This document shows, one piece after another, positions 1 to 25,106 of a stretch of DNA of 61,664 bases (position 1 is the first letter of the stretch; every line of letters begins with the position of its first letter). The notes beneath the pieces are model-generated. The model made no database searches and was not told where the DNA came from. It saw nothing but the letters and a program-made list of their open reading frames with translations. The DNA is taken from IMG/VR virus record IMGVR_UViG_3300046488_000260, positions 1 to 61,664 of that record. One strand, given 5' to 3'. This stretch comes from a virus. Taxonomy: Duplodnaviria; Caudoviricetes. The position numbers were made by a program, and so were the translations under genes.

Positions 1-1587
1 ATGGCAAGAAATAGTGCCCGGCGACTTGCAGGCCAGGCGGCGAACGGGACCGCGGCAACCCAACTCAAGATGATCCGCTGCGCGATCTACACGCGGAAGT
101 CCACCGAGGAGGGGCTGCAGCAGGAGTTCAACTCCCTGGATGCCCAGCGGGAGGCTGGCGAAGCGTTCATCGTCAGCCAGAAGCATGAGGGCTGGCAGGT
201 GATCACCGACCCCTTCGATGATGGCGGCTACACTGGCGCCAACATGGATCGCCCGGCACTGAAGCGGCTGCTCGCCGCAGTTGAGGCGCGGGCAGTGGAC
301 TGCATCGTGGTCTACAAAGTTGACCGGCTCAGTCGGTCCCTGATGGACTTCGCGCGGATTGTCGAAGTGCTCGACGAGAATGGCGTGAGCTTTGTGTCGG
401 TCACCCAGCAGTTCAATACGACGACTTCCATCGGCCGGCTGACGCTGAACATCCTCCTATCGTTTGCACAGTTCGAGCGCGAGATCATCTCCGAACGAAC
501 CCGCGACAAGATGTCGGCTGCGCGGCGGAAAGGCAAGTGGATCGGCGGCCATCCCGTCCTGGGATACGATATCGATCCGAAGGGCGGGAGGATCATCGTC
601 AATCCGGAGGAGGCGGAACAGGTTCGAACCCTTTTTGGCCTTTACCTGGAGCTCGGCTCCTTGCTTCCGGTGTTGCAGGAAGCGGACCGGCGCGGCCTGC
701 TGACCAAACGGTGGACCACAGAGGACGGCAAGGTCCGTGGAGGCCAGCGGATTTCCAAGGGCACGCTCCATGGCCTCCTCACCAACCCCATCTACACCGG
801 GATGGTCGACCATAAGGGCAGCCTGTATCCAGGCGAGCACGAGCGGATCATCGATCAGATCACGTGGGATCGAACTCATGAAACCCTTCGGCGAAACAAC
901 GGCGACAACGGCGCCAGCCTGAGAAACAAGTTCGGCGCCCTATTGCGCGGACTACTCTTCTGCGCACCGTGCGGGACCCCCATGGTGCACACCTACACGA
1001 TGCGGAAGTCCAAGCGCTACCGCTACTACGTCTGTTTTAACGCGCAGCAGAAGGGCTGGAAAAACTGCGAGACGAAGTCGGTTTCGGCCCAAGCGATCGA
1101 ATCTGCGGTCCTCGAAAGCATCCGCCGCATTGGGACCGACCCTAAACTGGCCGATGCAGTCGCCACCGAAGCCCTTGACCAAGTGGCTCGCCGGCGGCGG
1201 GAGATTGACCAGGAGTCGGAGACCCACCGGCGACGTATCCGGCAACTCAACCAGAACCTCGCGCGCGAGGCGGCGGACACGAGCGTGGACTCCGGCGCGC
1301 GGTTCGAGCGGATGGCCGCTCTTCAGCATGAGATCGAGACTGTGGAGCGCCGGGCGGCGGAACTGGCGGCCGAGCACAAAGACCTCGATACGGATCACAT
1401 CACCGCCGACGAGCTGCGGCGCACGCTGGCTGAGTTCGACGAGGTCTGGTCCTCCATCACCACCAAGGAGCAGGAGCAGATGATCCATCTACTGGTTGCC
1501 AAGGTCGGCTACGACGGGCGAACCGGCAAGGTCACCGTCAACTTCAGCAACACAGGAGCCAAGGAACTATGCCAAGGAAAGTGCTGA
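1..1587 (+). CDS. Large serine recombinase (integrase)
   Basis: CAIYTRKS catalytic Ser motif, VYKVDRLSRS and FAQFEREIISER resolvase motifs, recombinase domain, CAPCG...YYVC zinc ribbon, coiled coil; start may be ATG at 70. Confidence 0.95.
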   Translation: MARNSARRLAGQAANGTAATQLKMIRCAIYTRKSTEEGLQQEFNSLDAQREAGEAFIVSQKHEGWQVITDPFDDGGYTGANMDRPALKRLLAAVEARAVDCIVVYKVDRLSRSLMDFARIVEVLDENGVSFVSVTQQFNTTTSIGRLTLNILLSFAQFEREIISERTRDKMSAARRKGKWIGGHPVLGYDIDPKGGRIIVNPEEAEQVRTLFGLYLELGSLLPVLQEADRRGLLTKRWTTEDGKVRGGQRISKGTLHGLLTNPIYTGMVDHKGSLYPGEHERIIDQITWDRTHETLRRNNGDNGASLRNKFGALLRGLLFCAPCGTPMVHTYTMRKSKRYRYYVCFNAQQKGWKNCETKSVSAQAIESAVLESIRRIGTDPKLADAVATEALDQVARRRREIDQESETHRRRIRQLNQNLAREAADTSVDSGARFERMAALQHEIETVERRAAELAAEHKDLDTDHITADELRRTLAEFDEVWSSITTKEQEQMIHLLVAKVGYDGRTGKVTVNFSNTGAKELCQGKC

Positions 1588-2018
1588 CCACCATTGCGCC
1601 ACAACCCCGCGCGGGTTACGCGGCTCAAGTTGAGGTGACGATCTCGGTGCGCCAACACCGCTGCAAGTCTGACAAACCGGGGCGGCCCGATCAGGTCCCT
1701 GACCAAGGGCGGCGTCCCCGAGTGCCCAGGATTACGCGTCTGATGGCTCTCGCCATCAAGTTCCAGGAGATGGTCGATCAAGGAGAGATCCACGACTACG
1801 CCGAATTCGCGCGATTAGGTTACGTGACGCGGGCGCGGATCACTCAGATCATGAATCTGCTCCTCCTGGCACCGGCGATCCAGGAAGAGATCCTAGACTG
1901 GGCAGAGACTGCGCCTCAGCCCCTCGTATTGTCCGAACGGACCATGCGCCCGGTTGTACGGACCCTGCTTTGGTCACGCCAGTTGCATCTGTGGCAGAAG
2001 ATCAAATCCTCAAGTTGA
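1569..2018 (+). CDS. Hypothetical HTH-like protein coupled to the serine recombinase
   Basis: Overlaps the integrase end; LMALAIKF...YAEFARLGYVTRARITQIMNLLLLAPAIQEEIL resembles a helix-turn-helix and proteins that follow large serine recombinases. Confidence 0.65.
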   Translation: MPRKVLTTIAPQPRAGYAAQVEVTISVRQHRCKSDKPGRPDQVPDQGRRPRVPRITRLMALAIKFQEMVDQGEIHDYAEFARLGYVTRARITQIMNLLLLAPAIQEEILDWAETAPQPLVLSERTMRPVVRTLLWSRQLHLWQKIKSSS

Positions 2019-2338
2019 AAAATATCGCAGTCCGGAGGCGTGGGTTTTCCACAGACCAACAAACTGAGCAAGCCGAAGCGGGACGCCGACGTCCACCAGG
2101 CACTTGAGAGAAGGCTGCGGCCGCCGAGGACTGCGACTTCCCAGGCTTCTCGCCACACTCCCTCCGCCGCGCCAACATCACTTGGCGGCAGGAGGAACTT
2201 GCGCGCCAGACTCAGGGCTGGCACGCTAAGGCGGCGAAGCGCAGCAAGACTCAGACAGGTCAATGCCCCGCGCGAGATGACGCGACCTAAAGCCCTTTCA
2301 GTCACATGCGCCCCTGATTCCCGGAAGGCCCGGCACTT

Positions 2339-2368
2339 CTGACTACGGGGCATACAACTCGCTATAAT
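2339..2368 (+). promoter_or_regulatory. Putative sigma70 promoter of the GNAT-PIN/ASCH pair
   Basis: Perfect TATAAT at 2363-2368 with CTGACT 18 nt upstream, 45 nt before the GTG at 2413. Confidence 0.45.
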
Positions 2369-2412
2369 TCCGCTTCGGAGTAAAGTTTACGATACATAAG
2401 CAGCCTGCAGAA

Positions 2413-4551
2413 GTGAGCCGTTTCGTCGAACTTGTTCGCGAGCGTGGAGACTCCGAGCGAGATGCCCTCGGCTTTCTTCCTCGGTGCGTTTACAGCGAAG
2501 CTGCGGTACAAGGCAAGTTATACGTGGCTACTGTCAGTGTCGGGGGTGACGAATTCTATGCGGGCCACCTGTTGTTTGGCGGCAGATACCCGCATCTTAG
2601 AGTTTTCCAGATTTACGTAGTGCCCGAGTTCCGCCATCGGAACGTTGGTGGGGATCTCATCGAAGCATTGGCTGCCGATGCTGAGAGGCAGTACTACATC
2701 ACTATTTCGGCGCGTGTTGCCGCAGACCTCCCTGCGAACGACTTCTGGGAGCGGGTCGGCTTTCGCTGCGTTCGGACGGAACAAGGCGGTGCTTCGACTG
2801 GGAGGCGGATTAATGTGCGACGGCGGGAGTTGGACAGCCCAACTCTGTTCAGCGATGCCCGCTCGGACCAATCACCTGCGCGCCCGACAGTTGCCCAGGT
2901 TGAGCAGCCAATCTACGCGCTCGATCTCAATGTGTTGCTGGATGTGATAAAGGACCGTCCTCGGGCGGAGCATGCTCGCAGGTTGCTCACGGCTTCGATG
3001 AGTGGCATGTTGCGGCTTTTCGTTGCACGCGAGTTCGTACACGAGCTTTCCCGTGCCGCTATGGACCCAGCGGCCGATCCCGTTGTCAGGCTTGCGATCT
3101 CATTACCTCAGTTCACGGACGTACCCGACTTGTTGCTGGGCAACCTAAAGCGCGAGTTGGCAGACATAATCTTTGCGACCCGCGCCCAAGCTGGAGAGTT
3201 GCGGGCCCGCGATCACTCGGATCTGTCGCACCTTGCGACGATGATTTACCATTCGGCGTCGGGATTCGTCACCAGCGACGAAACGATTTTGCGTAAGCGA
3301 GAAGAGCTTCGCGCGAAGTACGGCATTGACGTAGTTGGTCCGGCCGAACTCGCTGAAATCTATATGCCTCGTCAGTGGACCGCGGCACAATTGAGCGCGC
3401 TGTCCCCAGACGGCACGCCAATTGAGATTTCCGAAATGAGCGAGGTGCGCCGCAAGGAGGTCGAGACGTTTCTTCTCGCCTGCGCGATGCCTCCGGATCA
3501 AATCACACGTGCGATCTCGCCCGGGCAGTCCGCCTGCCTGCGTCACAGGGTTATCGTGTTGTTTGGAGACACCGTCATCGGCTTTGCGTCCTGGGAGGCA
3601 CCTCGCGGGCCAAAGGCCTCGAGCGAAGCGTGGTTGACGGTCGAGCCAGTTCATACGATGGCAGAACTCGCGTGTAATGTCCTGTTCGACGCTATGTCGC
3701 GTGATGTGTGCGCGAACCGCCCGGCCTCAGTGATTCTGCGAGGTGATCTGTCGAACCGCGAGGTTCGGGGAAGCGCCGTCAGACACGGGTTTCGATCAGC
3801 AACCGCGGAAGCCGGTTTGGAAAGATACGAGAAGTTCTGTGTCGGGACGATCGTAACGCCGGGCAACTGGAACGGGTGCAGTGGGTTGATGAGCAAGATG
3901 TTCGGTTTTAGTTTGCCGGCCAGACCACCTGCATATTCAGGACTCAAGACCGTGATCAAAATCGACGGGCGGGACCGCATACCCGAGGAGATCAAGCTGC
4001 AGGACTTCGAAGCTCAATTCGGGCCCGTCATCCTAATGCTCTCCGACCGCCCTATAGCTGTCGTGCCAATCCAGCGAACCTACGCGGACCAACTACTGAG
4101 GTCGGCCAGCCAACAGTCTTTGTTTCCACCACCGGAAGCCTCTGTGTGGCATGAAAAACTGTACCTAAGCAGTCCGCGGACGCTCTCGGTACTCACACCC
4201 GGTACGATCATTCTTTTTTATGAGTCAATCGGAAACGACGGAGGTCGTGGAGCGATCATTGCCGCAGCACAGGTCATCCGCACGGCCGTTCGCGAGGCGA
4301 TTGACGTGCTCCCTGGTGAGACTCGCCGAGGGGTCTTGAGTTCGGAGGAAATTGGCGCCCTGAGCGTTAGCGGCAGAACGGCACTGACGTTCTTCAATCA
4401 CGTGATGCGGCTGGCCAAACCCGTCGGTCTCAGCCGACTGCGGACACTAGGTTGCGTGGATGGCACAAATTTCGTCACTGCTCGCCGTATCGAGGAATCT
4501 GCTGCATTTGCAATCATTCAAGAGGGAGAACCGAGTGTCAAATTGTCGTGA
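2413..4551 (+). CDS. GNAT acetyltransferase - PIN nuclease - GNAT-like - EVE/PUA-like multidomain protein
   Basis: QIYVVPEFRHRNVG...ANDFWERVGF (GNAT); YALDLNVLLD...D..HLA...FVTSD (PIN acidic motifs); C-terminal VVPIQ...PGTIILFYES (EVE/PUA-like). Confidence 0.75.
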   Translation: MSRFVELVRERGDSERDALGFLPRCVYSEAAVQGKLYVATVSVGGDEFYAGHLLFGGRYPHLRVFQIYVVPEFRHRNVGGDLIEALAADAERQYYITISARVAADLPANDFWERVGFRCVRTEQGGASTGRRINVRRRELDSPTLFSDARSDQSPARPTVAQVEQPIYALDLNVLLDVIKDRPRAEHARRLLTASMSGMLRLFVAREFVHELSRAAMDPAADPVVRLAISLPQFTDVPDLLLGNLKRELADIIFATRAQAGELRARDHSDLSHLATMIYHSASGFVTSDETILRKREELRAKYGIDVVGPAELAEIYMPRQWTAAQLSALSPDGTPIEISEMSEVRRKEVETFLLACAMPPDQITRAISPGQSACLRHRVIVLFGDTVIGFASWEAPRGPKASSEAWLTVEPVHTMAELACNVLFDAMSRDVCANRPASVILRGDLSNREVRGSAVRHGFRSATAEAGLERYEKFCVGTIVTPGNWNGCSGLMSKMFGFSLPARPPAYSGLKTVIKIDGRDRIPEEIKLQDFEAQFGPVILMLSDRPIAVVPIQRTYADQLLRSASQQSLFPPPEASVWHEKLYLSSPRTLSVLTPGTIILFYESIGNDGGRGAIIAAAQVIRTAVREAIDVLPGETRRGVLSSEEIGALSVSGRTALTFFNHVMRLAKPVGLSRLRTLGCVDGTNFVTARRIEESAAFAIIQEGEPSVKLS

Positions 4552-4963
4552 CATCCTAATTTCATTGAATCCTGCATACACGCAAGCCATACTAGACGGG
4601 CGAAAAACCGTGGAACTGCGGCGTCGCCGTTTGCATGTTGGGAACGGTACTCGGATCTGGATCTATTCGAAAACTCCCACTGCGCGAATCGAGGCAACAG
4701 CGTGCGTTCAACAGATTCACGAAGGCGATTTGGAAGGAATTTGGTCCGAGTTTGGGAACGCCGCGGGCATTTCCAAAGCTGAGTTCGACCGCTACTTTGC
4801 TGGATGCTCGACGGGATGTGCCGTAGTCCTTGACAGCGTTTGCGCTCTCGTCCCTGCCCTGGATTTGTCGACGATGAAGTCCGAAGTCGCAGGATTCCAC
4901 CCACCTCAGTTCTTCAAGCGCCTTCGAACAGAGGAACTTGAGACGCTATTGCAGATGCGCTAA
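4535..4963 (+). CDS. ASCH domain protein
   Basis: ILISLNPAYTQAILDGRKTVELRR contains the ASCH GxKxxExR motif; GTG at 4535 follows a GGGAG RBS and overlaps the upstream gene. Confidence 0.85.
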   Translation: MSNCRDILISLNPAYTQAILDGRKTVELRRRRLHVGNGTRIWIYSKTPTARIEATACVQQIHEGDLEGIWSEFGNAAGISKAEFDRYFAGCSTGCAVVLDSVCALVPALDLSTMKSEVAGFHPPQFFKRLRTEELETLLQMR

Positions 4964-5070
4964 TCCGCGTTCCTTCTCCGGATCACTGGCGCAGCGGCAC
5001 CTGACTGCCGGCAACCGGAAGTCCTGACGGCACCGAGAGAGTGGAGTGTCGGTCCAATGAATTTCGCGTG

Positions 5071-5403
5071 ATGCCTCTTTCTCCGCCTACCGCGACGAAC
5101 ACTTGCGCCCTGTGCCTGCGGACGGGATCCGCTGTGATGAGCCACGCTCCCTGCTGGCTTCTACCGGCTCCTGCGAAGCGTCACCGACAACAAAAACCCA
5201 AACCCGATCGCGATCGGCCAGGACATCTCGCTTCAGACCACAGGCCAAATCGAAGCCCCGCTGCTGTGCTCGGACTGCGAGCAACGATTCAACACGAGCA
5301 ACGATTCAACAACGGTGGCGAGCGATGGGTGCAGCAAAACTGCTTCCGTGGAACCAGCTTCAGGCTTCAGGACGCACTTAAGGCGGCGCGGCCATTCGAT
5401 CGG
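5071..5403 (+). pseudogene. Decayed HNH-like/zinc-finger gene remnant
   Basis: CALC...SH then, in a shifted frame, LPAGFYRLLR...LLCSDCEQRFNNGGERW; frameshift near 5146 and a 17-bp tandem duplication; runs into the convergent gene. Confidence 0.55.
5278..5311 (+). repeat. 17-bp perfect tandem duplication CGAGCAACGATTCAACA x2
   Basis: Copies at 5278-5294 and 5295-5311. Confidence 0.95.
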
Positions 5404-6168
5404 TCACGCCGCACGCTCGCGTTCGAAAAACTGCGGGCCGTTCTGCCGAAAGTCGTCAAGAGACGGAAACTGCTTGTCGCTGGCGCTGGTGATTCGGGTA
5501 CGATCCTTCTTCGTGATCCCGCTTTCGAAATCCTGGTGCACCATCACGCCCTTAAAGGGGATGCGCCGTCGCTGAAACTCCAGACATGAAATGGTGGCCA
5601 GCCGTGCCTTGTCGTTGTCCTTCACTCCGAACAGGAAAAGCGGACGCGAGTCGATGTCGAACTGGTAATCCACCTCGTACTCATCGTGGTCCGGAATCGG
5701 CAACGTGTTCCGGCGCGGGTTGTACTCGGCCAATTTTTCCTCGACAAACTCGGCCAGTTGTTCGTAGAAAAGGTTCTGGATGACCTCCCGCTTGTAGTAC
5801 TGCATGCTGGAGACTTTGGCGACCGTCTGCGCGAACTGAAGCAGCGCCGGGTACAGCCGTTCGGGCTCGGCCTCGATATACAACCGTCCGTCCTGTTCCT
5901 GAATCCGGTTTTCCGACAAGATGCGGTTGAAGATGCGCTGTTTGTTCTCGGTGTCCAGGTCGTAGGTGTACGTGAGACGCATCAGCGTCAGCCCATGGTC
6001 ACCGATCCGGACCTTACCGGAACCGTTCACGGGTTCATCGAGGAAGATGTCCACCATGTCGCCGTCTTCGTGAAACAACGGGGCCAGGACCTGGAGCACG
6101 CCCGGGCGGCGTTCTCGGAACGCCACATGGCCGTTGAACTGCTGTTTCAGTAAATCCAAGCCGGTCAT
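5404..6168 (-). CDS. DUF1828/DUF1829-like protein
   Basis: APLFHEDGDMVDIFL...VRIGDHGLTLMRL N-terminus typical of DUF1828; C-terminal restriction-fold-like YEVDYQF segment. Confidence 0.7.
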   Translation of the reverse strand: MTGLDLLKQQFNGHVAFRERRPGVLQVLAPLFHEDGDMVDIFLDEPVNGSGKVRIGDHGLTLMRLTYTYDLDTENKQRIFNRILSENRIQEQDGRLYIEAEPERLYPALLQFAQTVAKVSSMQYYKREVIQNLFYEQLAEFVEEKLAEYNPRRNTLPIPDHDEYEVDYQFDIDSRPLFLFGVKDNDKARLATISCLEFQRRRIPFKGVMVHQDFESGITKKDRTRITSASDKQFPSLDDFRQNGPQFFERERAA

Positions 6169-6686
6169 TGGGTTGGCTCCTCAGTGGGGAATGGCAGTAT
6201 CCCCTGGGCGAGATCCGCGAAATACGTCCGTGCGTCCGTGATGTTCGTCGCCCTCAGGAAATACTGTACCGCCTCTTCATAGGACGCAAAATCCCTGTTG
6301 ATCGTCGCGGCTCTTTCCGGCCGCAGTCCCGCGTCGATCATCTCCGCGCTGGCTCGGTGGACGTGGTAGTCCCAATGCGGATGGTCTGGATCGAACGATT
6401 CGTTGTAACCGCCGTGAGGCCCGTTGCAGCGGAGCAGGACCACTTCTCCGGACCCATCCTTCGCCAGGAACGCCAGGCCGACACTGAAATTCTCTGGCAG
6501 GTCCTCGCTGCGCCTCATGAACACGCGGAACTCCAGTTTTCCGTCGGTTGACTTCAGACGCATGTCGTTGCGGAGGTGCCCGCGATCCAGTTTCATATCT
6601 CGCTTCGGCGCTTCGGAAACCACCTTGGGGCAGGCAATCAGATCGTCGATCTCCTGCTGGGTGTACCGCCGTGGCGACGTGGCCAT
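6165..6686 (-). CDS. Hypothetical protein (DUF6978-like, His-rich), partner of the DUF1828-like gene
   Basis: FSVGL...LLRCNGPHG...HVH motif; ATGA-coupled to the next gene. Confidence 0.55.
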   Translation of the reverse strand: MATSPRRYTQQEIDDLIACPKVVSEAPKRDMKLDRGHLRNDMRLKSTDGKLEFRVFMRRSEDLPENFSVGLAFLAKDGSGEVVLLRCNGPHGGYNESFDPDHPHWDYHVHRASAEMIDAGLRPERAATINRDFASYEEAVQYFLRATNITDARTYFADLAQGILPFPTEEPTQ

Positions 6687-6687
6687 C

Positions 6688-9600
6688 TCAGAGTCCTCCT
6701 CGCAAGGCGTGGTCGCGGTCCAGTTCCGGCCGCACAGATTCTGCCCGCGCCAGGTACTCCATCTCCTTGTCGAGCAACTGAGGGTTCCGGCAGACGTGGA
6801 AGCCCCAGGCGCCCGACTGGCCCCAGTTGTTCACCGCCTCCACCCACCGGTTCGCCGCGGTGTGCTTGGCCTTCGTCTGGTCGTCTTCGAAACCCTTGAT
6901 TTCCAGCACCACGGTCACTCCGTTACTCAGCCGCACCAGAAAATCTGGTTCGTAAGCGTGGTCGATCCCCATGTACTCGTACGGGATCGTCAGCCCCATG
7001 TGGTCGTTGCGGGCATAAAACTGCACGGCATCGCTCGATTCCAACCGGAAGCCCGCGCTCGATTCCCACACCAGATTGTCCAGCACGACCTGGTCGATGT
7101 GGCTCTTCACCGTCGCGTGGCAGGCGCGCGTAGTTTTGAAATCAACCTCAGCAGTTGTGCCGATCGGCTTATAGCGATTGGTGATCGGCATCAGCGGCGC
7201 CTCACCTTCGGATTCATCCGGCACGATGGCATCCCGCAGCCGCTCCACCAGCCGCTGGACGTATTTCGCCAGGCCTAACTCGCAAGGATCACAGTTCTGG
7301 AAGTTCACCTTGCGGCGCACATAGTCGTCCACGTATCGGAAAACCTGCGGGAAAAGCTGATGTCGCGATTGCAGCGCCAGCACACGTCGCCGCCGATCCT
7401 TTACACCGGCGTCCGCCACCGTCAACTGATCCACGATGAGACGCGCGATTTCAAACTCGATGGTTTGTAGGTGCGTTTCGCGGTAGTATTCCTCGCGGTT
7501 CTGCTCGGCGAATGGGAACGGACTGCCGTGCGCCGACGCACTGCCTTCCGCGTACCCGACGGTGGGCCGCACAAACGTGGCGGTCGGTTCCCGGTTCGGC
7601 TCGATGTCCAGCACCGGCATCCCATCCACGTCGCACCGGATCAGGTTCTTCTGCAGCGCGAAGGCGTAGCCCTCCACCACCGGGAAGCGCATCTCCATGG
7701 CCTTCCGTTCCGGCAGGGCGCGCACATGATTCTTGGGCCGATCATCGGGCGCAGGCGCCTTCACCGGCCGCCCCTTGAACGGGATCACCGAGAACGGGAT
7801 GCCATAGACGTCCACGTACTCCTCGGTAAGCAGGCCGGTCTTCGGATCGGGCACGTAGTCCATGCGCCTTAGCCCGCGCCCCACTACCTGCTCGCATAGC
7901 AACTGGCTGCCGAAGGCCCGCACTCCCAGGATGTGAGTGACGTTGTTCGCGTCCCACCCCTCGGTCAGCATGGAGACCGACACCACGCAGCGCACGTGCT
8001 CGCCCGCCTGCCCCGGCTTGCCCACAGTAGCCACCACCTGCCGCAACTCCTCGGCGGCGTCCAGCCTCTTCTTCTTCGGATCGTCGCTCTCGGCCTCGGC
8101 CAGCAGCTTGGTATCGATCCGGATCGTCCGGTTCACATCGGGAGTGTTCGAGAAGTGCTCGGGGAAGATCGCTCCCTTTCCGTACACCGTGGTCGTCTTA
8201 CGCTTGCCGGATTTCGCCAGCTTCTGTTTCGCTGCTTCGGGCGCGCCGTCGCCATTCCCATCTTCATCCTCGCCAAGCACCTCGGCAACGTCGGCTTCGG
8301 TGACCGTCTCCGTCTCCGCTTCCCCGCTGATCTTCCGGTAGAAGACCTCGGCGATGTCGGTGTTGTCGCAAACCAGGATGAGCACGGGCGGTACGTGCTC
8401 CTGCCCCGGCGTTGCCGCCTCCATCTGTAGAAACCGCTCCTTCCACTGGGAGGCGATCTGCAGGAGGGCGCCTTCGGCTTCGCGGTAAACCACCTCCGGT
8501 TTGGGCCGTTTCGACTTGCCGGGCAGTCGCTCGCCGGGTTCCAGGCTTTCGTTGATCGCCTTCCACAGCTTGAAGTACTTCGGATCGGGCCTGCCCGTCG
8601 TGTCCAGTACCGGCAGGCGCGGAATCTTCACGATGCCACTCTCGATGGCGTCCACCAGGCCGAAGTCGCTCACAATCCACGGAAACGGCCTGCCCTCGGG
8701 GTAACCGCTCCCCTTCAGATAAAACGGCGTCGCGGAAAGGTCCAGGCAGATCGAGATACCTGGCTTGGTAGCGGGATCGGTGGTGCAGTTGTTGATCCGG
8801 TCCAGACCATCTAGCCAGACGCGCGCCTCTTCCACTTCATCCTTGTCCACCGTAGCGAAGTCTTCTTCGGTCGCCGCCGGGCGCCAGCAGTGGTGTCCCT
8901 CATCGTTCATCACCATGATGGGCAGCCGGTCGTACAGGTCTTCCAGCACCCGGCGCGCAAACGTATCCGGCGTCTCCGGACCTTTGTTCACCACCGCATA
9001 GCTCTTGCCGCCCTCCACGTGCTCCGATTCAGGCGCAAACCGGTGCCAGTTCGTCACCAGCACTTTTCCGGACTGCATGAGCGGACGGTATTTCACCGGA
9101 ACGATGTCGAACGCCTCGTAGTAGTTGTCCGGGCGCTCCGGGCGCAACACCTGCAAGCGCTCCTTCACCGTAAGGTTCGGGCAGCAGATCAAAACCCCGT
9201 TGGGGTAGAGGGTGGTCGCCGGATTCTGGCCGCGATTGCAGAACGCCCATGCCACTACCATGGACATGACCACGGTCTTGCCGCTGCCCGTCGCCATCTT
9301 ACACGCGATGCGGCGCAGCGCCGATAGCGTTGCATCCTGCCCCGGATCGATCAGTCGCGGAAAGAAGTCCTGGCCCAGCTTGCTGAATGACGGGCGTTCT
9401 CCGGCGAGCAGCCGCTTCAGGTCCTCTTTACTGAGCTTGGGATTTCCGCGAATCCCAACCTTTCCGGGGAACCGGATTTCCAGCAAATAGATGATCGTCT
9501 CGACAGCTTCGAGCTGACAGAAGAATAACCGCCGTGCGCGGTCTGTGCGCGCCCAGTGGCGCAGCAGATCGCGCGTAACGTTGGTTGCGCCCGGATACTC

Positions 9601-9882
9601 TGCATCGCGCCACTTCTGAACGTCCTCGCGCAGAGCGTTGACCAGCGGAAGGTCATCCCGCTCCTCCTCGGCAAGTAGACTCAGTTGGGCACTGCCGGTA
9701 CGCTCCGTCTTGAACCAATAGCTGGCATCGCGCCGTATTCCCGCACGGCTCGCCGCTCCGCTCTCCTTATCGTAGATCCAGTGGTCGCGCGGCGGTTCGT
9801 ATGGACTACAGAGGATAGGGCGATCCACTGGCTGCACGGGCATTTGCTCCTGCCCGGGCGTGACGGAGGCCTTCTTAGCCAC
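6688..9882 (-). CDS. res: Type III-like restriction endonuclease Res subunit (SF2 helicase plus PD-(D/E)XK nuclease)
   Basis: MATGSGKT Walker A, NDEGHH, LSATP, SMLTEGWD, QVVGRGLR and C-terminal YEPDFLV...LEIKG. Confidence 0.92.
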   Translation of the reverse strand: MAKKASVTPGQEQMPVQPVDRPILCSPYEPPRDHWIYDKESGAASRAGIRRDASYWFKTERTGSAQLSLLAEEERDDLPLVNALREDVQKWRDAEYPGATNVTRDLLRHWARTDRARRLFFCQLEAVETIIYLLEIRFPGKVGIRGNPKLSKEDLKRLLAGERPSFSKLGQDFFPRLIDPGQDATLSALRRIACKMATGSGKTVVMSMVVAWAFCNRGQNPATTLYPNGVLICCPNLTVKERLQVLRPERPDNYYEAFDIVPVKYRPLMQSGKVLVTNWHRFAPESEHVEGGKSYAVVNKGPETPDTFARRVLEDLYDRLPIMVMNDEGHHCWRPAATEEDFATVDKDEVEEARVWLDGLDRINNCTTDPATKPGISICLDLSATPFYLKGSGYPEGRPFPWIVSDFGLVDAIESGIVKIPRLPVLDTTGRPDPKYFKLWKAINESLEPGERLPGKSKRPKPEVVYREAEGALLQIASQWKERFLQMEAATPGQEHVPPVLILVCDNTDIAEVFYRKISGEAETETVTEADVAEVLGEDEDGNGDGAPEAAKQKLAKSGKRKTTTVYGKGAIFPEHFSNTPDVNRTIRIDTKLLAEAESDDPKKKRLDAAEELRQVVATVGKPGQAGEHVRCVVSVSMLTEGWDANNVTHILGVRAFGSQLLCEQVVGRGLRRMDYVPDPKTGLLTEEYVDVYGIPFSVIPFKGRPVKAPAPDDRPKNHVRALPERKAMEMRFPVVEGYAFALQKNLIRCDVDGMPVLDIEPNREPTATFVRPTVGYAEGSASAHGSPFPFAEQNREEYYRETHLQTIEFEIARLIVDQLTVADAGVKDRRRRVLALQSRHQLFPQVFRYVDDYVRRKVNFQNCDPCELGLAKYVQRLVERLRDAIVPDESEGEAPLMPITNRYKPIGTTAEVDFKTTRACHATVKSHIDQVVLDNLVWESSAGFRLESSDAVQFYARNDHMGLTIPYEYMGIDHAYEPDFLVRLSNGVTVVLEIKGFEDDQTKAKHTAANRWVEAVNNWGQSGAWGFHVCRNPQLLDKEMEYLARAESVRPELDRDHALRGGL

Positions 9883-12800
9883 GATTGGCCTCCAGCGGAT
9901 GGACTCGCATCACCTCGTTACCACGCGGGTCGATCACCTTCACCGCGACGGACTTGTGCTTGCCCGCGGGGAACGGCAAAGAGACGGTTCCCGAGAGCAG
10001 CTCGAACCGCTCCGGGTCCACGACACCCGCCAGCGCCTTGCTGAGCTTTTCCCAAGCGCTGCGGTCTGGAAAGAACGCCTGCGTGATGCAAAACGTCCGC
10101 CCGTCGTAATCGCCATCCACGAACCACGCCGCCACCTTCGCCGCGCCGGTGTCCACCACGGTGTTGTTCACCGGGTCGTAGACGTCCACACCTTCCATCT
10201 CGACGGTGTACATGCCGTCGCCGTCCGGACCATTCACGCTGGTGCGCGGACGGCCAAAGACGGTGAACAACTGGCTGCCGGGCTGTTCTTTCAAGAGGCC
10301 ATTCATGCCGGGGTTCACATCGGGGCGAATGTGCGCGATGTGCAGTCGCACACGCGGTACGCCCTCGTCGATGACGGCTTGGGCAGGTCCGTCGAAGCTG
10401 AACCCGGCGAATACGAGATCGTCGTATCGGCGCGCGGCCGGCTTGATGACCTCCTCGATCATCTTGGCCGTAATGGGGCCATACTGCGGACCGAAAACCA
10501 CGCCGACCGTGGCGTCACCCTCTGAGTCGTCGTCGGTTTCGCCAACGTTTACCCACCGACCTTCGGCATGGATGCCGGCGGAACTGCCGGTGGCGTAGAT
10601 CGCGTCCAGGCGCGTGAACTTCTTCTGCTTATTATCCGGGAATCGGACGCCGTCCATGCGGAGCAGGTCCACCATTTTGCTGAGATACGCTTCGAGATTC
10701 TGGGCCGACTCACCCAGCTGTACTTCACGGATGGCGAACGTTCCTTCCAATTCGTCCGGCTCGCCAGCGAAGCCGGTTTCGACGACGGTGGCGTCGCCCA
10801 GGGACATTTCCGGCGGCTGGACTGCCTCCACCGTGAAAGGTCCGCTGACGCGGGTGATCTTGCGATCAACCTCCGGCTGGTCTACCAGTTCTTCGGGATC
10901 AGCATTCGCTGCAATGCAGGTGTTGACCTCGTCCATCTTGACCCGCCACGCCGCGCGGTATTCCTCGACGGCTTTCTTCAAATCGGCGGGGTAATCCGGA
11001 TCGGTATCAGATGGGACTTTCCAGTGATGCCAGCCCTTGCCCTTGGCCGGGAGGTCCCACCGGCGACGGTCGGCTTCGGTGATGGACTTCTTGCCTTCCT
11101 GCTTCTGCTTCAATGCGAGCTTCGTACGCAGCTCGTTGCGGAGCCGGTCCGACACGGTCTGGAGCGATTTATTGGCGGCGGCAAGGCGCTCTTCGAGGAT
11201 AGGTTCATGCTTCGCGAAAATCGGATCGAGGTTGGAATTCTGCGCGACTGTCCGCAGCATTATGTGCGGAACCGTCTTGTTCCGGAACCCTTGTGCGACG
11301 CCCGCCGATTCGTCTCGAAGCCTGAAGTATTCGTACCGGGCCGTGAGTATACGCTGACGAGCCAGAGCAATGGCTACGCGGCTCGTGTCGATGGTGACCC
11401 ACCTTCGCCCCCAATCCTCAGCGATACTGGCGGTTGTACCGCTGCCGCATGTCGGGTCAAGCACGAGATCGCCGGGATCAGTTGTCATCAGCATGCAGCG
11501 CTCAATAACCTTGGTGTTTGTCTGAACAACGTATACCTTCAGATCAGTGAAGGCTCCAGTCTGGGTATCGTTCCAGACCTCCGTGAGAGGAGTTAGAGGG
11601 AAATCACCCAAGAATCGTACGTAAGTGAGAGAGTTCGGCGTGGGTGCAGCGAGGCGCTCGGCACTAATCAGGCGCGCCATTCCCTCCGGATTCGTTTTCC
11701 AGAAACCTCGCCCAGGTCGGAAGGTATTCTCCTGAAACTCTACAGGATAGTCGGAGTTGGTGCCGCCGCTTTGGGAGGTTAGATTGTCGTGCCTGTATAT
11801 CTGAGCTCCCTTGGGCAGCTTGCCTGGGTCATCCCGTTCCTCTGTCGTCAAGACATGCCTTGCCCCACCTGGCAGTAACGCCCTAGTGAAACGTCCTCCG
11901 ATATCGTCTTCGAAACCCCGCGACCTGAACAGACTCCGGAACTTTAGGTTCGACTTGTCGCGAGCGTACCAGAGTAGGTAGTTTGCACTGGGGCCGAGAT
12001 GCTGCCCGCCAAGGCTCGAAGTAGTCCGAAACGTGATCTGCGCCCCAAAGTTGCTGGCCCCAAATACCTCATCGAGTAGGCATCGGACGCGGTGGATATT
12101 CTCGTCGCTGATCTGGACGAACACGCTTCCCGAATCAGCAAGGAGATCGCGAGCGACAACAAGCCGGTCTCGCAGATATGCGAGGTACGAGTGGACCCCG
12201 AGCGTCCACGTGTCTCGGTACGCTTTCACCATCTCCGGTTCACGCGTGAGGTCGGCCTCTTTGTCTTTCACCTCGCGCTTTCCAATCTCCGGCTGGAAAT
12301 TGCTGGAGAACTTGATCCCATACGGTGGGTCCATGTAGATCATCTGGACCTTGCCCGCAAGATCTTCTCGCCGGGCCAGTGATGACATGACCTGTAGGCT
12401 GTCGCCCAGGATCAGGCGATTCGACCAGTCCACGTCGTGCTTGTAGAACTGGACCGCCTCGTTGTACTCCTGCTCCGGGTCGGCGAACAGCGAGCGGTTC
12501 ACGTCCTCGCGCGCTGCCACCTTCAGGATGGCCTGAGCGCTGGCCCGCTCGTGGATATGCAGAGCGACCGGGTCAACGGCGAACGACTTGGTCTCTCGCT
12601 TTCCGGCCCACTCCAGCCACGGCTCGTGGTGGCGCAGCGCCTCCGCTAGCACCCCCACCTCGGCATCCGTCAACTTGCGTTGCCTGGCGGTCGCGAGCAA
12701 TTCGGGCGTCTGGTCGGTTCGGCCCGTCGGATCGAACCGGAGTTCTGGCGGGCGCCGCGGACTGTACAAGTACTCGGCCTTGGGGATCAGCGGAACGTAG

Positions 12801-12922
12801 CCTTCGGCTGCGATCTTGGCGGGCGGATTATTCTTCCGTGTCGCCTTGGGAAAACGGTAGTCGCTGACGTTCTTCAGAACGTCATCTGCGGGCGCAGTCC
12901 TCGGCTTCTGCTTTTTGGCCAT
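9875..12922 (-). CDS. mod: Type III-like N6-adenine DNA methyltransferase (Mod)
   Basis: DPPY motif IV and LDPTCGSGTT motif I in beta-class order; stop overlaps the Res start. Confidence 0.92.
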   Translation of the reverse strand: MAKKQKPRTAPADDVLKNVSDYRFPKATRKNNPPAKIAAEGYVPLIPKAEYLYSPRRPPELRFDPTGRTDQTPELLATARQRKLTDAEVGVLAEALRHHEPWLEWAGKRETKSFAVDPVALHIHERASAQAILKVAAREDVNRSLFADPEQEYNEAVQFYKHDVDWSNRLILGDSLQVMSSLARREDLAGKVQMIYMDPPYGIKFSSNFQPEIGKREVKDKEADLTREPEMVKAYRDTWTLGVHSYLAYLRDRLVVARDLLADSGSVFVQISDENIHRVRCLLDEVFGASNFGAQITFRTTSSLGGQHLGPSANYLLWYARDKSNLKFRSLFRSRGFEDDIGGRFTRALLPGGARHVLTTEERDDPGKLPKGAQIYRHDNLTSQSGGTNSDYPVEFQENTFRPGRGFWKTNPEGMARLISAERLAAPTPNSLTYVRFLGDFPLTPLTEVWNDTQTGAFTDLKVYVVQTNTKVIERCMLMTTDPGDLVLDPTCGSGTTASIAEDWGRRWVTIDTSRVAIALARQRILTARYEYFRLRDESAGVAQGFRNKTVPHIMLRTVAQNSNLDPIFAKHEPILEERLAAANKSLQTVSDRLRNELRTKLALKQKQEGKKSITEADRRRWDLPAKGKGWHHWKVPSDTDPDYPADLKKAVEEYRAAWRVKMDEVNTCIAANADPEELVDQPEVDRKITRVSGPFTVEAVQPPEMSLGDATVVETGFAGEPDELEGTFAIREVQLGESAQNLEAYLSKMVDLLRMDGVRFPDNKQKKFTRLDAIYATGSSAGIHAEGRWVNVGETDDDSEGDATVGVVFGPQYGPITAKMIEEVIKPAARRYDDLVFAGFSFDGPAQAVIDEGVPRVRLHIAHIRPDVNPGMNGLLKEQPGSQLFTVFGRPRTSVNGPDGDGMYTVEMEGVDVYDPVNNTVVDTGAAKVAAWFVDGDYDGRTFCITQAFFPDRSAWEKLSKALAGVVDPERFELLSGTVSLPFPAGKHKSVAVKVIDPRGNEVMRVHPLEANRG

Positions 12923-13216
12923 AGTCGTGATCGGTCTCTACGATTGTATGTGGTTGCGTCCGCGTTGTCCGCTGACCGGGTGCGCGTGTCGGCCACGTCG
13001 CCGACGCACCGCCTGGAGGCGGTGCCACATGCCCCCCGGCAGCCTCCGCGGGAAAAACCCCTTTATGTAAGGGAACCCAAAAATGTCTCCCCAACGGACG
13101 CGTTTCAAAAAGGGGGGGTACCACCCGTGCGTGCTCGCGAAAAGCACGCCAGTGGCCAGTGTGGAAAGCTAGATCCAACCGTTGCGAAAAACGACGCCTG
13201 GGGAAGGTCCAGAAAA

Positions 13217-13255
13217 GCATGGAAGAGGTCACGAGTTCGAATCTCACCAGATCCA
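13217..13255 (+). other. Degenerate 3' half of a tRNA (tRNA-Ala(GGC)-like), probable att-site relic
   Basis: GCATGGAAGAGGTCACGAGTTCGAATCTCACCAGATCCA: anticodon 3' arm, variable loop, GTTCGAATC T-loop, partial T-stem and acceptor 3' strand; no 5' half upstream. Confidence 0.65.
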
Positions 13256-13514
13256 TGTCACGCTGCGCTGCTCGGGCGTCCCCAAGTACCGGGATTTTGC
13301 ACTGAGATCCACAGCAATTCGCGGTCAAGAATTTGATTCTATTCGATTTCAACGACATGGGCTGTGCACAACCTGTGAATTGATTTTTGCCTTCTGTTCG
13401 CCATGATACGATAGAGGCGTTGTACTTCAGGCCCCCCGCGCGGCGTTGAATCGACGGGGCACACCTGCCGCGACAGACCACTTCCTTATTCATAACTCAC
13501 TGAGGTGTCTGAAG

Positions 13515-14711
13515 ATGGCCCGATTCAACCTGAAGAGCTTTGCGCAGCCAGACCTCCTGAAAAGAATTCAGCCGGGGAACTTGATTCCGCTGCTCGAACC
13601 CTTCCGGATGTTCCTGGAAACGAAGGGATACTCCATTCCATCCGGCGGAGATCCGGAAATCGACGTCCCGGCGCTCGGAGGCATCCTCGCTCAGCCCGAC
13701 GAGGAGATGCCGGGAGATTTGGTTGAGGCGCTGCACTTGATCGGCACCCTTGGCGCGGACGAGCGCTTTGATGAATTGCTGGAGATGGCGGCGGCCAACC
13801 AGATTGAAACAGACGGTGAAGTCACGGCGATGGATCTGGCCACCCAGATTTGGCTCAAGAACCCCGAAGCGTTGGAGAGGAAGGAGCACGAAGAGCACTT
13901 TCAGAATCGAAAGTCTTTTGAGAGCTTTCGCGCAGCCAACCCAGAAGTCGTTGTCGCCATCGACGACCTGCCGAGAGACCTGACTGCCTTGCAGGAGGCG
14001 CTCGAGGCCTATTTCCAGGCGAAGAAGCGCGGCGTTGGGTGCCGCGTTACCCGGAAGGACTCTCCTGATGAGGTCCGGTTCCTCGTCGAGCATGGCCAAC
14101 CCTGCAAACGTGAACCGTGCCGGAAGGGGCCAAAATCGACATCAACGTTTTTCCGCCCCGAGAAGACGGACGTGGTGATCTACGACGTCGTTCACAACGA
14201 ACTCCGCATCAACGCTTCCACCGCCGCCGACGTGCGCAAATACCGAGCGTTTTTTGGGCACCACGTTTTCGGCGACGAAGACCGGTTCGTGTTCCGCGAG
14301 AAGTACACCCTCGATCCGCTCAAGAAGGATGGCCGCGCGGCCCTCAATTGCGGCGACATTCCCGGAATTGACAAGGTGGATCTCCGGGAAATCGAGTATT
14401 CCTGGGGCGGCGCCTTTGAACACATGGAGATTCATCGCGCCGAAGGCCTGTTTCATGCGCTGGCGTTGATCCGGAGAGACGTCGAAACGGAACCTCATAT
14501 CCGTAAGGCCGTATTCAAAATCAAGTTGGCTGGCGAGAAGCGGCCTCGCAGCGTGACAGTCAAGGCCGGCAACAAGTCCGGCTATAACCGCGGCGAAGAG
14601 GCGATGGTGATTGAGGATTGGCTGCGTGCTCGCGGGTTCGTCCTTACCGCGGAACCAGTAGAGGAGACAGCCCAGGATGCGGACGCTGAGATGGCTTTGG
14701 CGGGGGCTTGA
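13515..14711 (+). CDS. Hypothetical protein (398 aa), first gene of the phage core
   Basis: Long ORF with typical codon usage, GAGGTG RBS before ATG 13515; no family recognised. Confidence 0.8.
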   Translation: MARFNLKSFAQPDLLKRIQPGNLIPLLEPFRMFLETKGYSIPSGGDPEIDVPALGGILAQPDEEMPGDLVEALHLIGTLGADERFDELLEMAAANQIETDGEVTAMDLATQIWLKNPEALERKEHEEHFQNRKSFESFRAANPEVVVAIDDLPRDLTALQEALEAYFQAKKRGVGCRVTRKDSPDEVRFLVEHGQPCKREPCRKGPKSTSTFFRPEKTDVVIYDVVHNELRINASTAADVRKYRAFFGHHVFGDEDRFVFREKYTLDPLKKDGRAALNCGDIPGIDKVDLREIEYSWGGAFEHMEIHRAEGLFHALALIRRDVETEPHIRKAVFKIKLAGEKRPRSVTVKAGNKSGYNRGEEAMVIEDWLRARGFVLTAEPVEETAQDADAEMALAGA

Positions 14712-24100: not shown

Positions 24101-25106
24101 CCTGAGTCCCCGCGGAGCCCCGCGCTTTTGCGGGAGGTCAAAACACGAGCCCCCGCGTGTTAAGTATCTATCCATCAAATGCTTACCGGGAATCGCGGGG
24201 ACTCGCGGGAATTTCCAAAGGTGGGCTGCGCCTATATGCGCGCGCGTAACGCGTGATGCGCGTAATGCGTGTAAGTGTGTAACTCACACATGCAAGAGTA
24301 TAAAAAAGTCCCCGCAGGTCCCCTCAAATCTCTTTATGCCTACGACAAACAAACAGTTAATGTGCGGGGATTCGCCAAACTCATCCCCCGCAGAGTCCCG
24401 GCAGGTCCCCGCCGTTTGTAACAGTTCTGCGGCCATTTGGGTGTCCACGGACCTAAAATCGTGGTGCCCACGGGATCCGGGCTTCATCGCGCGGGACTGC
24501 CAAATCGATGATCGGTGCTTTCGGCGGCTCGATCCCGAGTACTTCGCCTGGCTCAAAGGTCGAATGCACGCCGTCAAGGCAGCCGCGGATGCCGGGCGGG
24601 TGCCGGCGGAGGAATTTGACGAGCTTCGCCGGCGGTTCAACGGGGTTCAAACCCGGGCAATCGAGGCCTTCGGCGACGCCGTGCTTTTGGACGCCATACG
24701 CGCGTTCGACGCGGAGCGCTACCGCCCACCCCTGCCGGAGCCTGTCGAGCCCGTGAAGGCGCTGGAAACCGCGGCGCGGCCGAGCCCAGAGTCCGAACGC
24801 ATGACGCGCGCACGGAAACTGGTTGATGAAATTCGTGACCAGGCGCTGGCGGTTGGCTGGACCATGGACAGCCTGTATTTCGCGGACGGATACGAGCGAC
24901 GCCCGATCGGCCCCCGGTACGGACTGGTCTGCTATGTCGGCGCCCAGGACCGGATTGGCGAAGTCACGCGCCAGGCCATCGAGTTGCTTGGGATGCCGCC
25001 GGTGGAAACGAGACTGCGATTCTACAATCCGGATGTGGAGCAGCCGTGGGTGATCCGGAGTGCAGGACGGCAACCGAGAACGCCCTCGCCCAAACTAACT
25101 GATTAG
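24093..25106 (+). CDS. Hypothetical protein (true start probably downstream of the repeat region)
   Basis: The first ~100 codons overlap the repeats; the later part (RRLDPEYFAWLK...FYNPDVEQPW) has normal coding bias. Confidence 0.6.
   Translation: MRSLSPRGAPRFCGRSKHEPPRVKYLSIKCLPGIAGTRGNFQRWAAPICARVTRDARNACKCVTHTCKSIKKSPQVPSNLFMPTTNKQLMCGDSPNSSPAESRQVPAVCNSSAAIWVSTDLKSWCPRDPGFIARDCQIDDRCFRRLDPEYFAWLKGRMHAVKAAADAGRVPAEEFDELRRRFNGVQTRAIEAFGDAVLLDAIRAFDAERYRPPLPEPVEPVKALETAARPSPESERMTRARKLVDEIRDQALAVGWTMDSLYFADGYERRPIGPRYGLVCYVGAQDRIGEVTRQAIELLGMPPVETRLRFYNPDVEQPWVIRSAGRQPRTPSPKLTD
24106..24412. repeat. GTCCCCGC direct and inverted repeats, putative replication origin
   Basis: GTCCCCGC at 24106, 24308 and 24405, inverted at 24195, plus near-matches, interleaved with AT-rich stretches right after the primase gene. 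Confidence 0.55.

Follow-up and report, generated by a model that had tools for sequence, protein, structure and literature searches.

What does a two-gene module at the start of a prophage's cargo do for the cell that carries it? The question is raised by a locus in the IMG/VR virus record IMGVR_UViG_3300046488_000260, the whole 61,664-base stretch of which is called the window here. This single provirus record has a CheckV completeness of 93% and includes terminase, portal and capsid/protease genes. Near its left end, a large gene (A) is followed on the same strand by a small ASCH gene (B). The original prediction, made from the letters of the DNA, had described the product of A as a 712-aa fusion of acetyltransferase, PIN and PUA-like parts, and the pair as a candidate defence or toxin–antitoxin (TA) system. 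We favour, with a probability of roughly 55%, the reading that A–B is a self-contained, mobile two-gene operon carried as cargo in a prophage defence slot, where it would provide an RNA-targeting, TA-like defence of the lysogen. That the pair has a role in conflict or defence of some kind we consider rather probable; the specific step in which an acetyl mark is written and erased is doubtful.

We modelled A with AlphaFold2 on 134 sequences, which gave a mean predicted local distance difference test score (pLDDT) of 91.8 and a predicted template modelling score (pTM) of 0.79, with the linker at residues 147–161 as the only disordered stretch. VIA-align was then run on the structural matches of Foldseek to delimit the domains. 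Together with Pfam, which placed a GNAT domain at residues 49–124 and a PIN domain at residues 169–295 (E 7e-7), the model assigns A the architecture GNAT–PIN–GNAT–PUA-like (coordinates in Table 1), and the predicted union of acetyltransferase, PIN and PUA-like parts in one 712-aa protein is borne out. A phmmer search of A against PDB sequences returned marginal GNAT matches only.

The PIN domain aligned with VapC11 (Z 10.8, root-mean-square deviation (rmsd) 2.7, 131 aligned), and its conserved acidic residues lie on this fold. D171, E207, E211, D270, H273 and T287 are invariant in 134/134 sequences, and position 289 is D or E in 134/134; the four acidic active-site positions are assigned from the general PIN consensus. 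Since G20 and R131 are the only other invariant residues of the alignment, so that nearly all invariant columns fall in the PIN site, this site is by alignment the most constrained part of A. The N-terminal GNAT (GNAT1) is nearest in structure to N-alpha-acetyltransferases: the best VIA-align match was 9f1c_DC (Z 11.9, rmsd 3.0, 141 aligned), and the Naa, RimI and Ard1 rows scored Z 10–12. Its acetyl-CoA motif A, R74-x-x-G77-x-G/A79, is well represented in the alignment (R74 in 123/134, G77 in 96/134, G/A79 in 130/134), with R74, N77 and G79 in the window copy. The second, core GNAT (GNAT2) matched AAC(2')-Ia (Z 13.2, rmsd 3.0, 143 aligned). In the 134-sequence alignment it shows no R/Q-x-x-G-x-G/A after strand 4 and has the consensus V-D-E-x-H-P-x-A-E instead, and Pfam found no GNAT on residues 323–499. 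Co-linear hhalign identifies GNAT2 as the counterpart of the GNAT in canonical PIN-GNAT-EVE proteins, and its state fits the description of the PIN-associated GNAT as degenerate in Matelska 2017 (PMC5499597).

These domains bring to mind known toxins. The PIN of A shares with VapC toxins a VapC11-like fold and an intact acidic site, and GNAT1 shares with the GNAT toxins TacT and AtaT a resemblance to N-alpha-acetyltransferases; GNAT toxins apply N-alpha-acetylation chemistry to aminoacyl-tRNA. No TacT or AtaT chain was found among the best 60 PDB profile matches of A, although GNAT1 may still be of the TacT/AtaT type. Toxins such as VapC, TacT and AtaT consist of one small domain and are kept in check by small antitoxins that bind DNA, whereas A of the window fuses both domains with a putative reader domain and has an enzyme-like ASCH protein as its partner.

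The closest structural relative of the C-terminal domain of A is ZmASCH (Zymomonas mobilis ZMO0922; PDB 5GUQ, 5GUS, 5Y6B and 5Y6C). In the full model, the PUA-like domain aligned with 5GUS at Z 13.1 (rmsd 2.6, 143 aligned; VIA-align). When the domain was folded alone (pLDDT 81.8) and compared with 48,161 representative chains, the top match was again ZmASCH (5GUQ; Z 15.6, rmsd 2.6, 142 aligned), in agreement with Foldseek. EVE, YTH and McrB-N structures ranked behind it at Z 9–11, the EVE matches being PH1033 (Z 11.1, rmsd 2.9, 127 aligned), Rpa0253 (Z 10.6, rmsd 4.4, 129 aligned) and THYN1 (Z 9.8, rmsd 3.4, 135 aligned). The Pfam EVE family (PF01878) had no match in A of the window and matched 6/23 A relatives (best E 1.2e-6). 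Of the EVE/PUA C-terminus put forward originally, the PUA-like fold is retained and the EVE label is uncertain, given the missing Pfam match in this protein and a ZmASCH Z of 15.6 against about 10–11 for EVE. The profile of B also aligns with this domain (hhalign 94%, E 1.3e-7). Unlike ZmASCH, the domain lacks the G-x-K-x-x-E-x-R (GKER) motif; it keeps Tyr603, the counterpart of ZmASCH Tyr47. A homologue search with residues 490–712 of A found 18 proteins, mostly on short contigs and apparently fragments, and no stand-alone or differently fused C-terminal domain among them.

B itself has the features of the GKER subgroup of ASCH proteins. Its start is likely GTG 4535 rather than ATG 4460, because a GAGGGAG Shine–Dalgarno-like stretch lies just upstream of the GTG, the PADLOC and PDB alignments begin there and relatives start there. 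With this start, A and B overlap by 17 nt, and the open reading frame (ORF) positions confirm the overlap claimed for the ASCH gene. The PDC-M11B profile matched residues 27–165 of the long B ORF (profile positions 5–139 of 142), and ZmASCH (PDB 5GUS/5GUQ) matched residues 5–140 at E 2.7e-20. G22, K24, E27 and R29 of the octapeptide, together with Y44, the Tyr47 equivalent, are invariant in 33/33 sequences. B thus keeps the GKER motif and Tyr47 of ZmASCH and differs from it in having Phe in place of Ser128.

The two genes go together wherever they could be assessed. A genome scan gave 43 loci, eight of which had partial A matches only and were left out of the counts (L004 and L038, the two of these that we inspected, are described below); in the other 35, A was full-length and B lay directly downstream in all 35. 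The A stop and B start overlapped by 1–17 nt in 34 of these loci (8 nt in 20), the remaining locus having a 114-nt gap, and this conserved overlap is the basis for proposing translational coupling. No third gene was common to the 35 loci. In the reverse direction, a search of 401 Pseudomonadota genomes with the B profile (E<=1e-6) matched 10 genomes. Three matches lay beside a window-type A, six beside a canonical A and the tenth lay 319 nt from a contig start and was not assessable, so that 9/9 assessable B genes adjoined an A gene. The pairing of A and B is obligate, and a ZmASCH-type protein, with a crystal structure and in vitro activities, thereby falls in a family that obligately partners A-type proteins.

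Such tight coupling is also what a plain addiction module would show, in which A is the toxin (through PIN and/or GNAT), B is the antidote and the pair serves to stabilise its prophage or genomic islet without acting on phages. Matelska 2017 and Bell 2020 class the operon as a predicted TA, isolated A–B insertions occur among housekeeping genes in many genomes, and some copies look decayed. We nonetheless think this explanation rather improbable: B keeps an invariant motif of catalytic type, unlike a simple binder, the window subfamily has no DNA-binding domain for autoregulation, and the location in a prophage hotspot fits defence at least equally well, TA and defence being compatible. The decayed-looking copies comprise three in which the last 230 codons of A contain stops or frame breaks (L019, L022 and L032), one with A truncated after about residue 275 (L004) and one that keeps a lone 161-aa GNAT1-like remnant (L038), although assembly errors in metagenome-assembled genomes may explain them. 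Judged by eye, an ORF of 619 aa near the L038 remnant is a putative relaxase, and one of 425 aa forms with the small ORF before it a putative HipA/HTH pair (HTH, helix-turn-helix).

We also asked how far the four-domain form extends. A profile-free HMMER search of 1.84 billion representatives, clustered at 50% identity, found 1541 relatives of A at E<=1e-3 and at least 380 at E<=1e-30. Because of these matches, and because 141 of the 150 relatives listed are 701–766 aa long, the four-domain form is, by sequence matching, a large family and no chance arrangement. Names met in a word-index search point to Acidobacteriota, Burkholderia and others, and the A–B pair crosses phylum boundaries, its neighbours changing at nearly every locus. 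This large four-domain subfamily separates a probably active GNAT1 from a degenerate GNAT2.

The pair very probably belongs to a class that is already catalogued, (PIN)-GNAT-EVE + ASCH, listed by PADLOC as PDC-M11. PDC-M11A hidden Markov models (HMMs) matched residues 496–685 of A only (E 4.3e-15). In hhalign, residues 169–705 of the window-family profile aligned with positions 4–490 of a canonical 492-aa PIN-GNAT-EVE protein (96.8% probability, E 2e-10), and the N-terminal 147 residues of A had no counterpart in the canonical PDC-M11A protein. Because residues 169–705 align co-linearly, A is by profile comparison a complete PIN-GNAT-EVE core with an added N-terminal GNAT. B fits PDC-M11B almost end to end, and the two genes are adjacent on one strand, as in PDC-M11. 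Canonical PDC-M11A proteins were matched in 8/401 Pseudomonadota genomes (E<=1e-8; examples L051–L055). Two that we inspected are PIN-GNAT-PUA proteins of about 490–530 aa, one followed by an ASCH–AAA_17 fusion and the other lying between an HTH-ASCH gene and an AAA_17 gene; these operons match those described in Bell 2020 (PMC7641849). The window differs from PDC-M11 in that A is longer by an N-terminal GNAT of 147 residues and fits the HMMs in just its last ~190 residues, no AAA_17 kinase-like gene or fusion is present, B has no HTH and the core GNAT has no motif A.

Computational work had already described the operon type, in Bell, Wolf & Koonin 2020 (PMC7641849) and, as PIN_15/PIN_17, in Matelska 2017 (PMC5499597); both credit Iyer 2013 for it and class it as a predicted TA. 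Their accounts share with the window the order PIN–GNAT–PUA-like, a second PUA-like ASCH protein always in the operon, and a predicted TA or defence role for an uncharacterised module near restriction-modification (RM) systems. They differ in that the GNAT of Matelska 2017 is always preceded by PIN (PMC5499597), and the terms 'GNAT-PIN', 'two GNAT' and 'second GNAT' are absent from the text of Bell 2020 (PMC7641849). In Bell 2020, PIN-GNAT-EVE neighbours type I RM and further defence systems, and GNAT-EVE without PIN occurs in prophages (PMC7641849); the window departs from this pattern, its prophage carrying the PIN-containing form beside a type III RM system. Payne 2024 sets out 145 PDC candidates, and PDC-M11 is not named in its main text (bioRxiv 10.1101/2024.01.29.577857). 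Elsewhere in the literature, 'PDC-M11' is named just in passing, and 'GNAT-EVE' appears just in Bell 2020 and its preprint. Full-text literature searches returned no experimental study of the PIN-GNAT-EVE + ASCH class, in keeping with the earlier remark that such architectures lacked functional characterisation, and the candidate defence/TA label given at the outset agrees with the predictions of Bell 2020 and Matelska 2017 and with the PDC-M11 listing. The class is widespread and has had a predicted conflict role for over a decade. As a kind, A–B is therefore not new, having been catalogued from 2013–2020 onwards, and what sets the window apart is only the additional GNAT at the N-terminus and the carriage by a prophage. 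The strongest new points are that A and B pair obligately, that one GNAT is intact where the other is degenerate, and that the prophage slot is a hotspot.

ZmASCH gives a first idea of what the two PUA-like domains might do. Kim 2017 reports that ZmASCH cleaves single-stranded RNA in a Mg-dependent manner and that the Y47F mutant is reduced in nucleic-acid binding and RNA hydrolysis (PMC5615036). According to a recent preprint, the Lys and Glu of GKER are needed for removal of N4-acetylcytidine (ac4C) from tRNA by TthASCH, EOLA1 and TRIP4, and ZmASCH removes tRNA ac4C in vitro (bioRxiv 10.64898/2026.02.27.708502). From folds, conserved residues and context, we infer a mechanism in five proposed steps. 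A and B would be co-transcribed, from a promoter that is a consensus match only, and translationally coupled. The ZmASCH-like barrel of A, which has no Lys/Glu dyad, would, to judge by its fold, bind nucleic acid in single-stranded form; the probable ligand is RNA or tRNA, perhaps with a modified base. The VapC-like PIN, the most conserved part of A, would cleave the bound RNA. GNAT1 would acetylate an amine on the same target, either the alpha-amine of aminoacyl-tRNA or N4 of cytidine, and the degenerate GNAT2 would serve as a scaffold. More speculatively, B, as a ZmASCH-related and catalytically equipped ASCH hydrolase, might undo or limit A in uninfected cells as an enzymatic antitoxin, or be a second effector, and infection might shift the balance to translation arrest.

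The logic proposed for A–B has a precedent in DarT–DarG, a TA/defence pair whose writer places a mark on nucleic acid that its hydrolase partner takes off again; there too, a transferase effector and a de-modifying enzyme are encoded side by side. DarT–DarG differs in acting by ADP-ribosylation of DNA and in having folds unrelated to those of A–B, and for the class of A–B acetyl transfer to nucleic acid is putative. A fuller version of the same logic, which we regard as unlikely, would make the pair a writer–reader–eraser immune module. GNAT1 would mark RNA, aminoacyl-tRNA or invading nucleic acid, the barrel of A would read the mark and direct PIN to it, and B would erase it on self, in the manner of DarT–DarG with acetyl groups; catalysis would have moved from the degenerate core GNAT to the acquired N-terminal one. 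If acetyl marks are indeed written and erased, bacterial immunity would gain a new chemistry; otherwise, A–B remains another uncharacterised TA-like cassette.

The same activities could also be imagined outside any conflict, with one GNAT writing an acetyl mark such as ac4C, ASCH erasing it and PIN trimming RNA in a pair that regulates translation under stress. ASCH proteins, ZmASCH included, remove tRNA ac4C in vitro, many A–B loci have housekeeping neighbours, and the window-family profile weakly matches the E. coli YpfI GNAT (PDB 2ZPA, E 0.0023), which we take to be TmcA, the ac4C writer. Yet this match stands among many GNATs and is no better than dozens of others, and the distribution of the pair is sporadic (9 adjacent pairs in 401 genomes), it crosses phyla with a changing neighbourhood, and it extends to a prophage and a plasmid. 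We consider a non-conflict RNA pair improbable.

The position of A–B within the provirus argues for a role as defence cargo. The large serine recombinase at the left end is common to 16 viral contigs (25–87% identity), its companion gene orf149 follows it directly in 14/16, and the two (1..2018) mark the prophage end and the start of a cargo slot. In the window, this slot holds A–B, a DUF1828/DUF6978 pair and a type III RM system 1.7 kb from A–B. No A or B was found in the 16 related proviruses by tblastn (E<=1e-5). We scanned the region after orf149 with PADLOC (E<=1e-15) in 13 of the 16, excluding L073, where the DNA ends, L083, which lacks a match to orf149, and L084, which is just 25% identical, and found defence genes in the slot of 9/13. 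These were a type III RM with a DrmD-like helicase (L069); a dCTPase, a type IV/HEC-06-like enzyme and type I M and S subunits (L070); type II restriction endonucleases (L071 and L080); a type III RM (mod 40% and res 35% identical to those of the window) with PDC-M41B and SoFic (L074); Vsr and HerA (L075); a type I RM with Septu PtuAB (L079); a CapP-like protein (L081); and a HamB-like helicase (L082). The slots of L072, L076, L077 and L078 had no PADLOC defence genes at this threshold. Because 9/13 related proviruses hold defence genes there, the slot that follows orf149 is a hotspot of varying defence content, and it offers natural with/without comparisons within the phage family. The claim that the module sits in a cargo slot beside a restriction system is upheld by the type III RM and by the related proviruses.

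Two further explanations turn on this setting. Carriage on a provirus could mean that the prophage uses A–B in its own infection, for anti-restriction or host take-over, and Bell 2020 suggests that prophage GNAT-EVE may protect phages from host RM (PMC7641849). We judge this very unlikely. A–B adjoins the integrase in a slot that in relatives is occupied by RM, Septu and the like; it stands apart from the modules for replication and structure, behind a promoter-like site of its own, a pattern of cargo expressed in the lysogen; it includes the PIN that Bell 2020 ties to host defence (PMC7641849); and its relatives are nearly all chromosomal. The nearby RM system, in turn, could make B a helper that strips a protective base modification so that the PIN of A or the type III RM can cut. 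B is ZmASCH-like with its motif intact, and a preprint describes BapA as a ZmASCH-like hydrolase that removes glucose from glucosylated 5-hydroxymethylcytosine (glc-5hmC), aids the glycosylase Brig3 and widens defence (bioRxiv 10.64898/2026.02.25.707755); recent reports have ASCH proteins erasing ac4C from tRNA and, in this case, helping defence by removing a base modification. This role is more doubtful still, as the obligate partner of B is A and not RM. Since related provirus L074 has RM without A–B and most chromosomal A–B loci have no RM nearby, a link to RM is not obligatory. As an interpretation, the original prediction is reasonable and borne out in part; its proposals of modified-base sensing, of acetyl writing and erasing, of abortive infection and of a backup to the RM system are speculative.

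Chromosomal neighbourhoods gave a mixed picture. Up to four heuristic ORFs per side were collected at the 35 loci (255 ORFs; PADLOC E<=1e-12), and the nearest two per side (134 of the 255 neighbour ORFs) were vetted with Pfam. PADLOC matches occurred near A–B in 13/35 loci before vetting, and convincing defence neighbours in 7/35: a type I RM (L005); PDC-S68 (L006); an M78/CapP-like protein (L007); AbiEi plus an integrase (L008); SNF2, an Eco57I-like protein and a DUF1016 nuclease (L021); TmtA (L023); and SNF2, type IIG, NERD and AAA_15 proteins (L036). On enrichment in defence islands, which the original prediction had named among its refuting conditions, the result is mixed, with defence neighbours at 7 loci and none that convince at the other 28, and the 7/35 is a raw count. 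Three loci were set aside as ambiguous, with a protein kinase (L014), an RtcR-type regulator (L025) and an AAA ATPase (L026). Among the PADLOC matches, 'MzaA' at L031, L033 and L041 was rejected as RpoD by Pfam, and 'RT_UG29/DnaG-like' at L031 as DnaG. The MzaA model PDLC02203 matches housekeeping RpoD at E 1e-30 to 1e-76, and DRT models match DnaG primase. Other neighbours were an IS110 transposase (L012), a CopG antitoxin (L015) and an HNH_5 gene (L023, L024 and L026).

Several observations weigh against A–B being an RNA-targeting defence operon of the prophage. GNAT1 activity is uncertain on sequence grounds, because the window copy has Asn77, where 96/134 relatives have Gly, and because position 112, taken by alignment to RimI as the general-acid Tyr position, is Trp in 109/134 and Tyr in 25/134. 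B lacks an HTH domain and exceeds typical proteic antitoxins in size, and A has frame breaks at 3/35 loci, the L019, L022 and L032 copies described above. At 28/35 chromosomal loci there is no convincing defence gene within 4 ORFs, and several loci lie among the housekeeping genes dnaK/dnaJ, dnaE, secA/accA or rpoD/dnaG. A has no match in 50,697 phage records and matches 2/72,556 plasmids, and a two-peptide pattern scan of other IMG/VR viral contigs gave 71 matches and no relative, a weak form of absence. From these three results, prophage carriage is, as far as sequence searches go, unusual for the A family. On the biochemical side, ZmASCH neither decreases ac4C in vivo nor hydrolyses free ac4C in the preprint account (bioRxiv 10.64898/2026.02.27.708502). 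Bell 2020 states that none of these modules is characterised (PMC7641849), and Payne 2024 calls the PDC systems untested as defence systems (bioRxiv 10.1101/2024.01.29.577857).

One of the plasmid matches is a full-length relative of A (32% identity, 99% coverage) at 24091–26187 of NZ_CP048816.1, a 231-kb plasmid of Caulobacter rhizosphaerae, where it is annotated merely as 'GNAT family N-acetyltransferase'. A pattern scan of genome contigs, built from a single protein, gave 36 matches and no relative.

Table 1 Features of the A–B locus and of the neighbouring cargo in the window
Feature	Position (nt)	Strand	Residues	Details
Gene A	2413..4551	+		712 aa, GTG start, GNAT1-PIN-GNAT2-PUA-like
GNAT1, extra N-terminal acetyltransferase domain	2413..2853	+	1-147	Pfam GNAT families; VIA-align 9f1c_DC
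PIN, VapC-like	2899..3345	+	163-311	Pfam PIN; VapC11 fold match
GNAT2, core GNAT	3379..3909	+	323-499	AAC(2')-Ia fold match
C-terminal PUA-like beta-barrel	4039..4539	+	543-709	ZmASCH-like fold; PADLOC PDC-M11A residues 496-685
Gene B, ASCH, GKER subgroup	4535..4963	+		142 aa, likely GTG start; Pfam ASCH; PDC-M11B E 5.1e-27
Sigma-70-like promoter candidate	2339..2368	+		CTGACT-18-TATAAT; 10/12 consensus matches, 45 nt upstream of A
Large serine recombinase	1-1587	+		Pfam Resolvase, Recombinase, Zn_ribbon_recom; left end of provirus
orf149, conserved companion of the recombinase	1569-2018	+		149 aa; overlaps recombinase end; homologue after recombinase in 14/16 related proviruses
DUF1828 protein	5404-6168	-		Pfam; PADLOC PDC-M24B E 7e-15; phrog_5059
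DUF6978-like protein	6165-6686	-		weak match; phrog_27326
Type III RM res	6688-9882	-		PADLOC REase_III, weak, E 1.2e-10
Type III RM mod	9875-12922	-		PADLOC MTase_III E 1.5e-177

The start of A seems to have shifted downstream in the window copy, because the position homologous to the relatives' start codon is GTA, which is not a start codon. The 11 codons before GTG 2413 (2380–2415) resemble the N-terminal extension of relatives (VKFTIHKQPAE against MKLTIFKQPAD), and some relatives also start at the position of 2413. Upstream, the promoter that had been ascribed to A was recovered in part. Its TATAAT is present at 2363–2368 and well placed, but only 2 such sites in 1500–6800 compare with 1.4 +/- 1.4 in shuffled sequences, and because the site count is not above that of the shuffles, the candidate is consistent with a promoter without being statistical evidence of one. 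An antisense promoter-like site, TTGACA-17-AATGAT at 4541–4513 (-), lies inside the A/B overlap; with 10/12 matches, it may be due to chance.

As for the rest of the cargo, orf149 had no match in Pfam or NCBIfam. The DUF1828 and DUF6978-like genes, convergent and overlapping, occupy the interval (5404–6686) between A–B and the type III RM; they may form a second candidate defence pair, and the DUF6978-like gene had no PADLOC match. An Rfam scan of positions 1–14000 of the window gave no matches. Further into the provirus, the gene at 31911–33170 (+) joins a ParB-like nuclease domain with a DNA methyltransferase (phrog_498, E 9e-154); genes of this anti-restriction type are common in phages.

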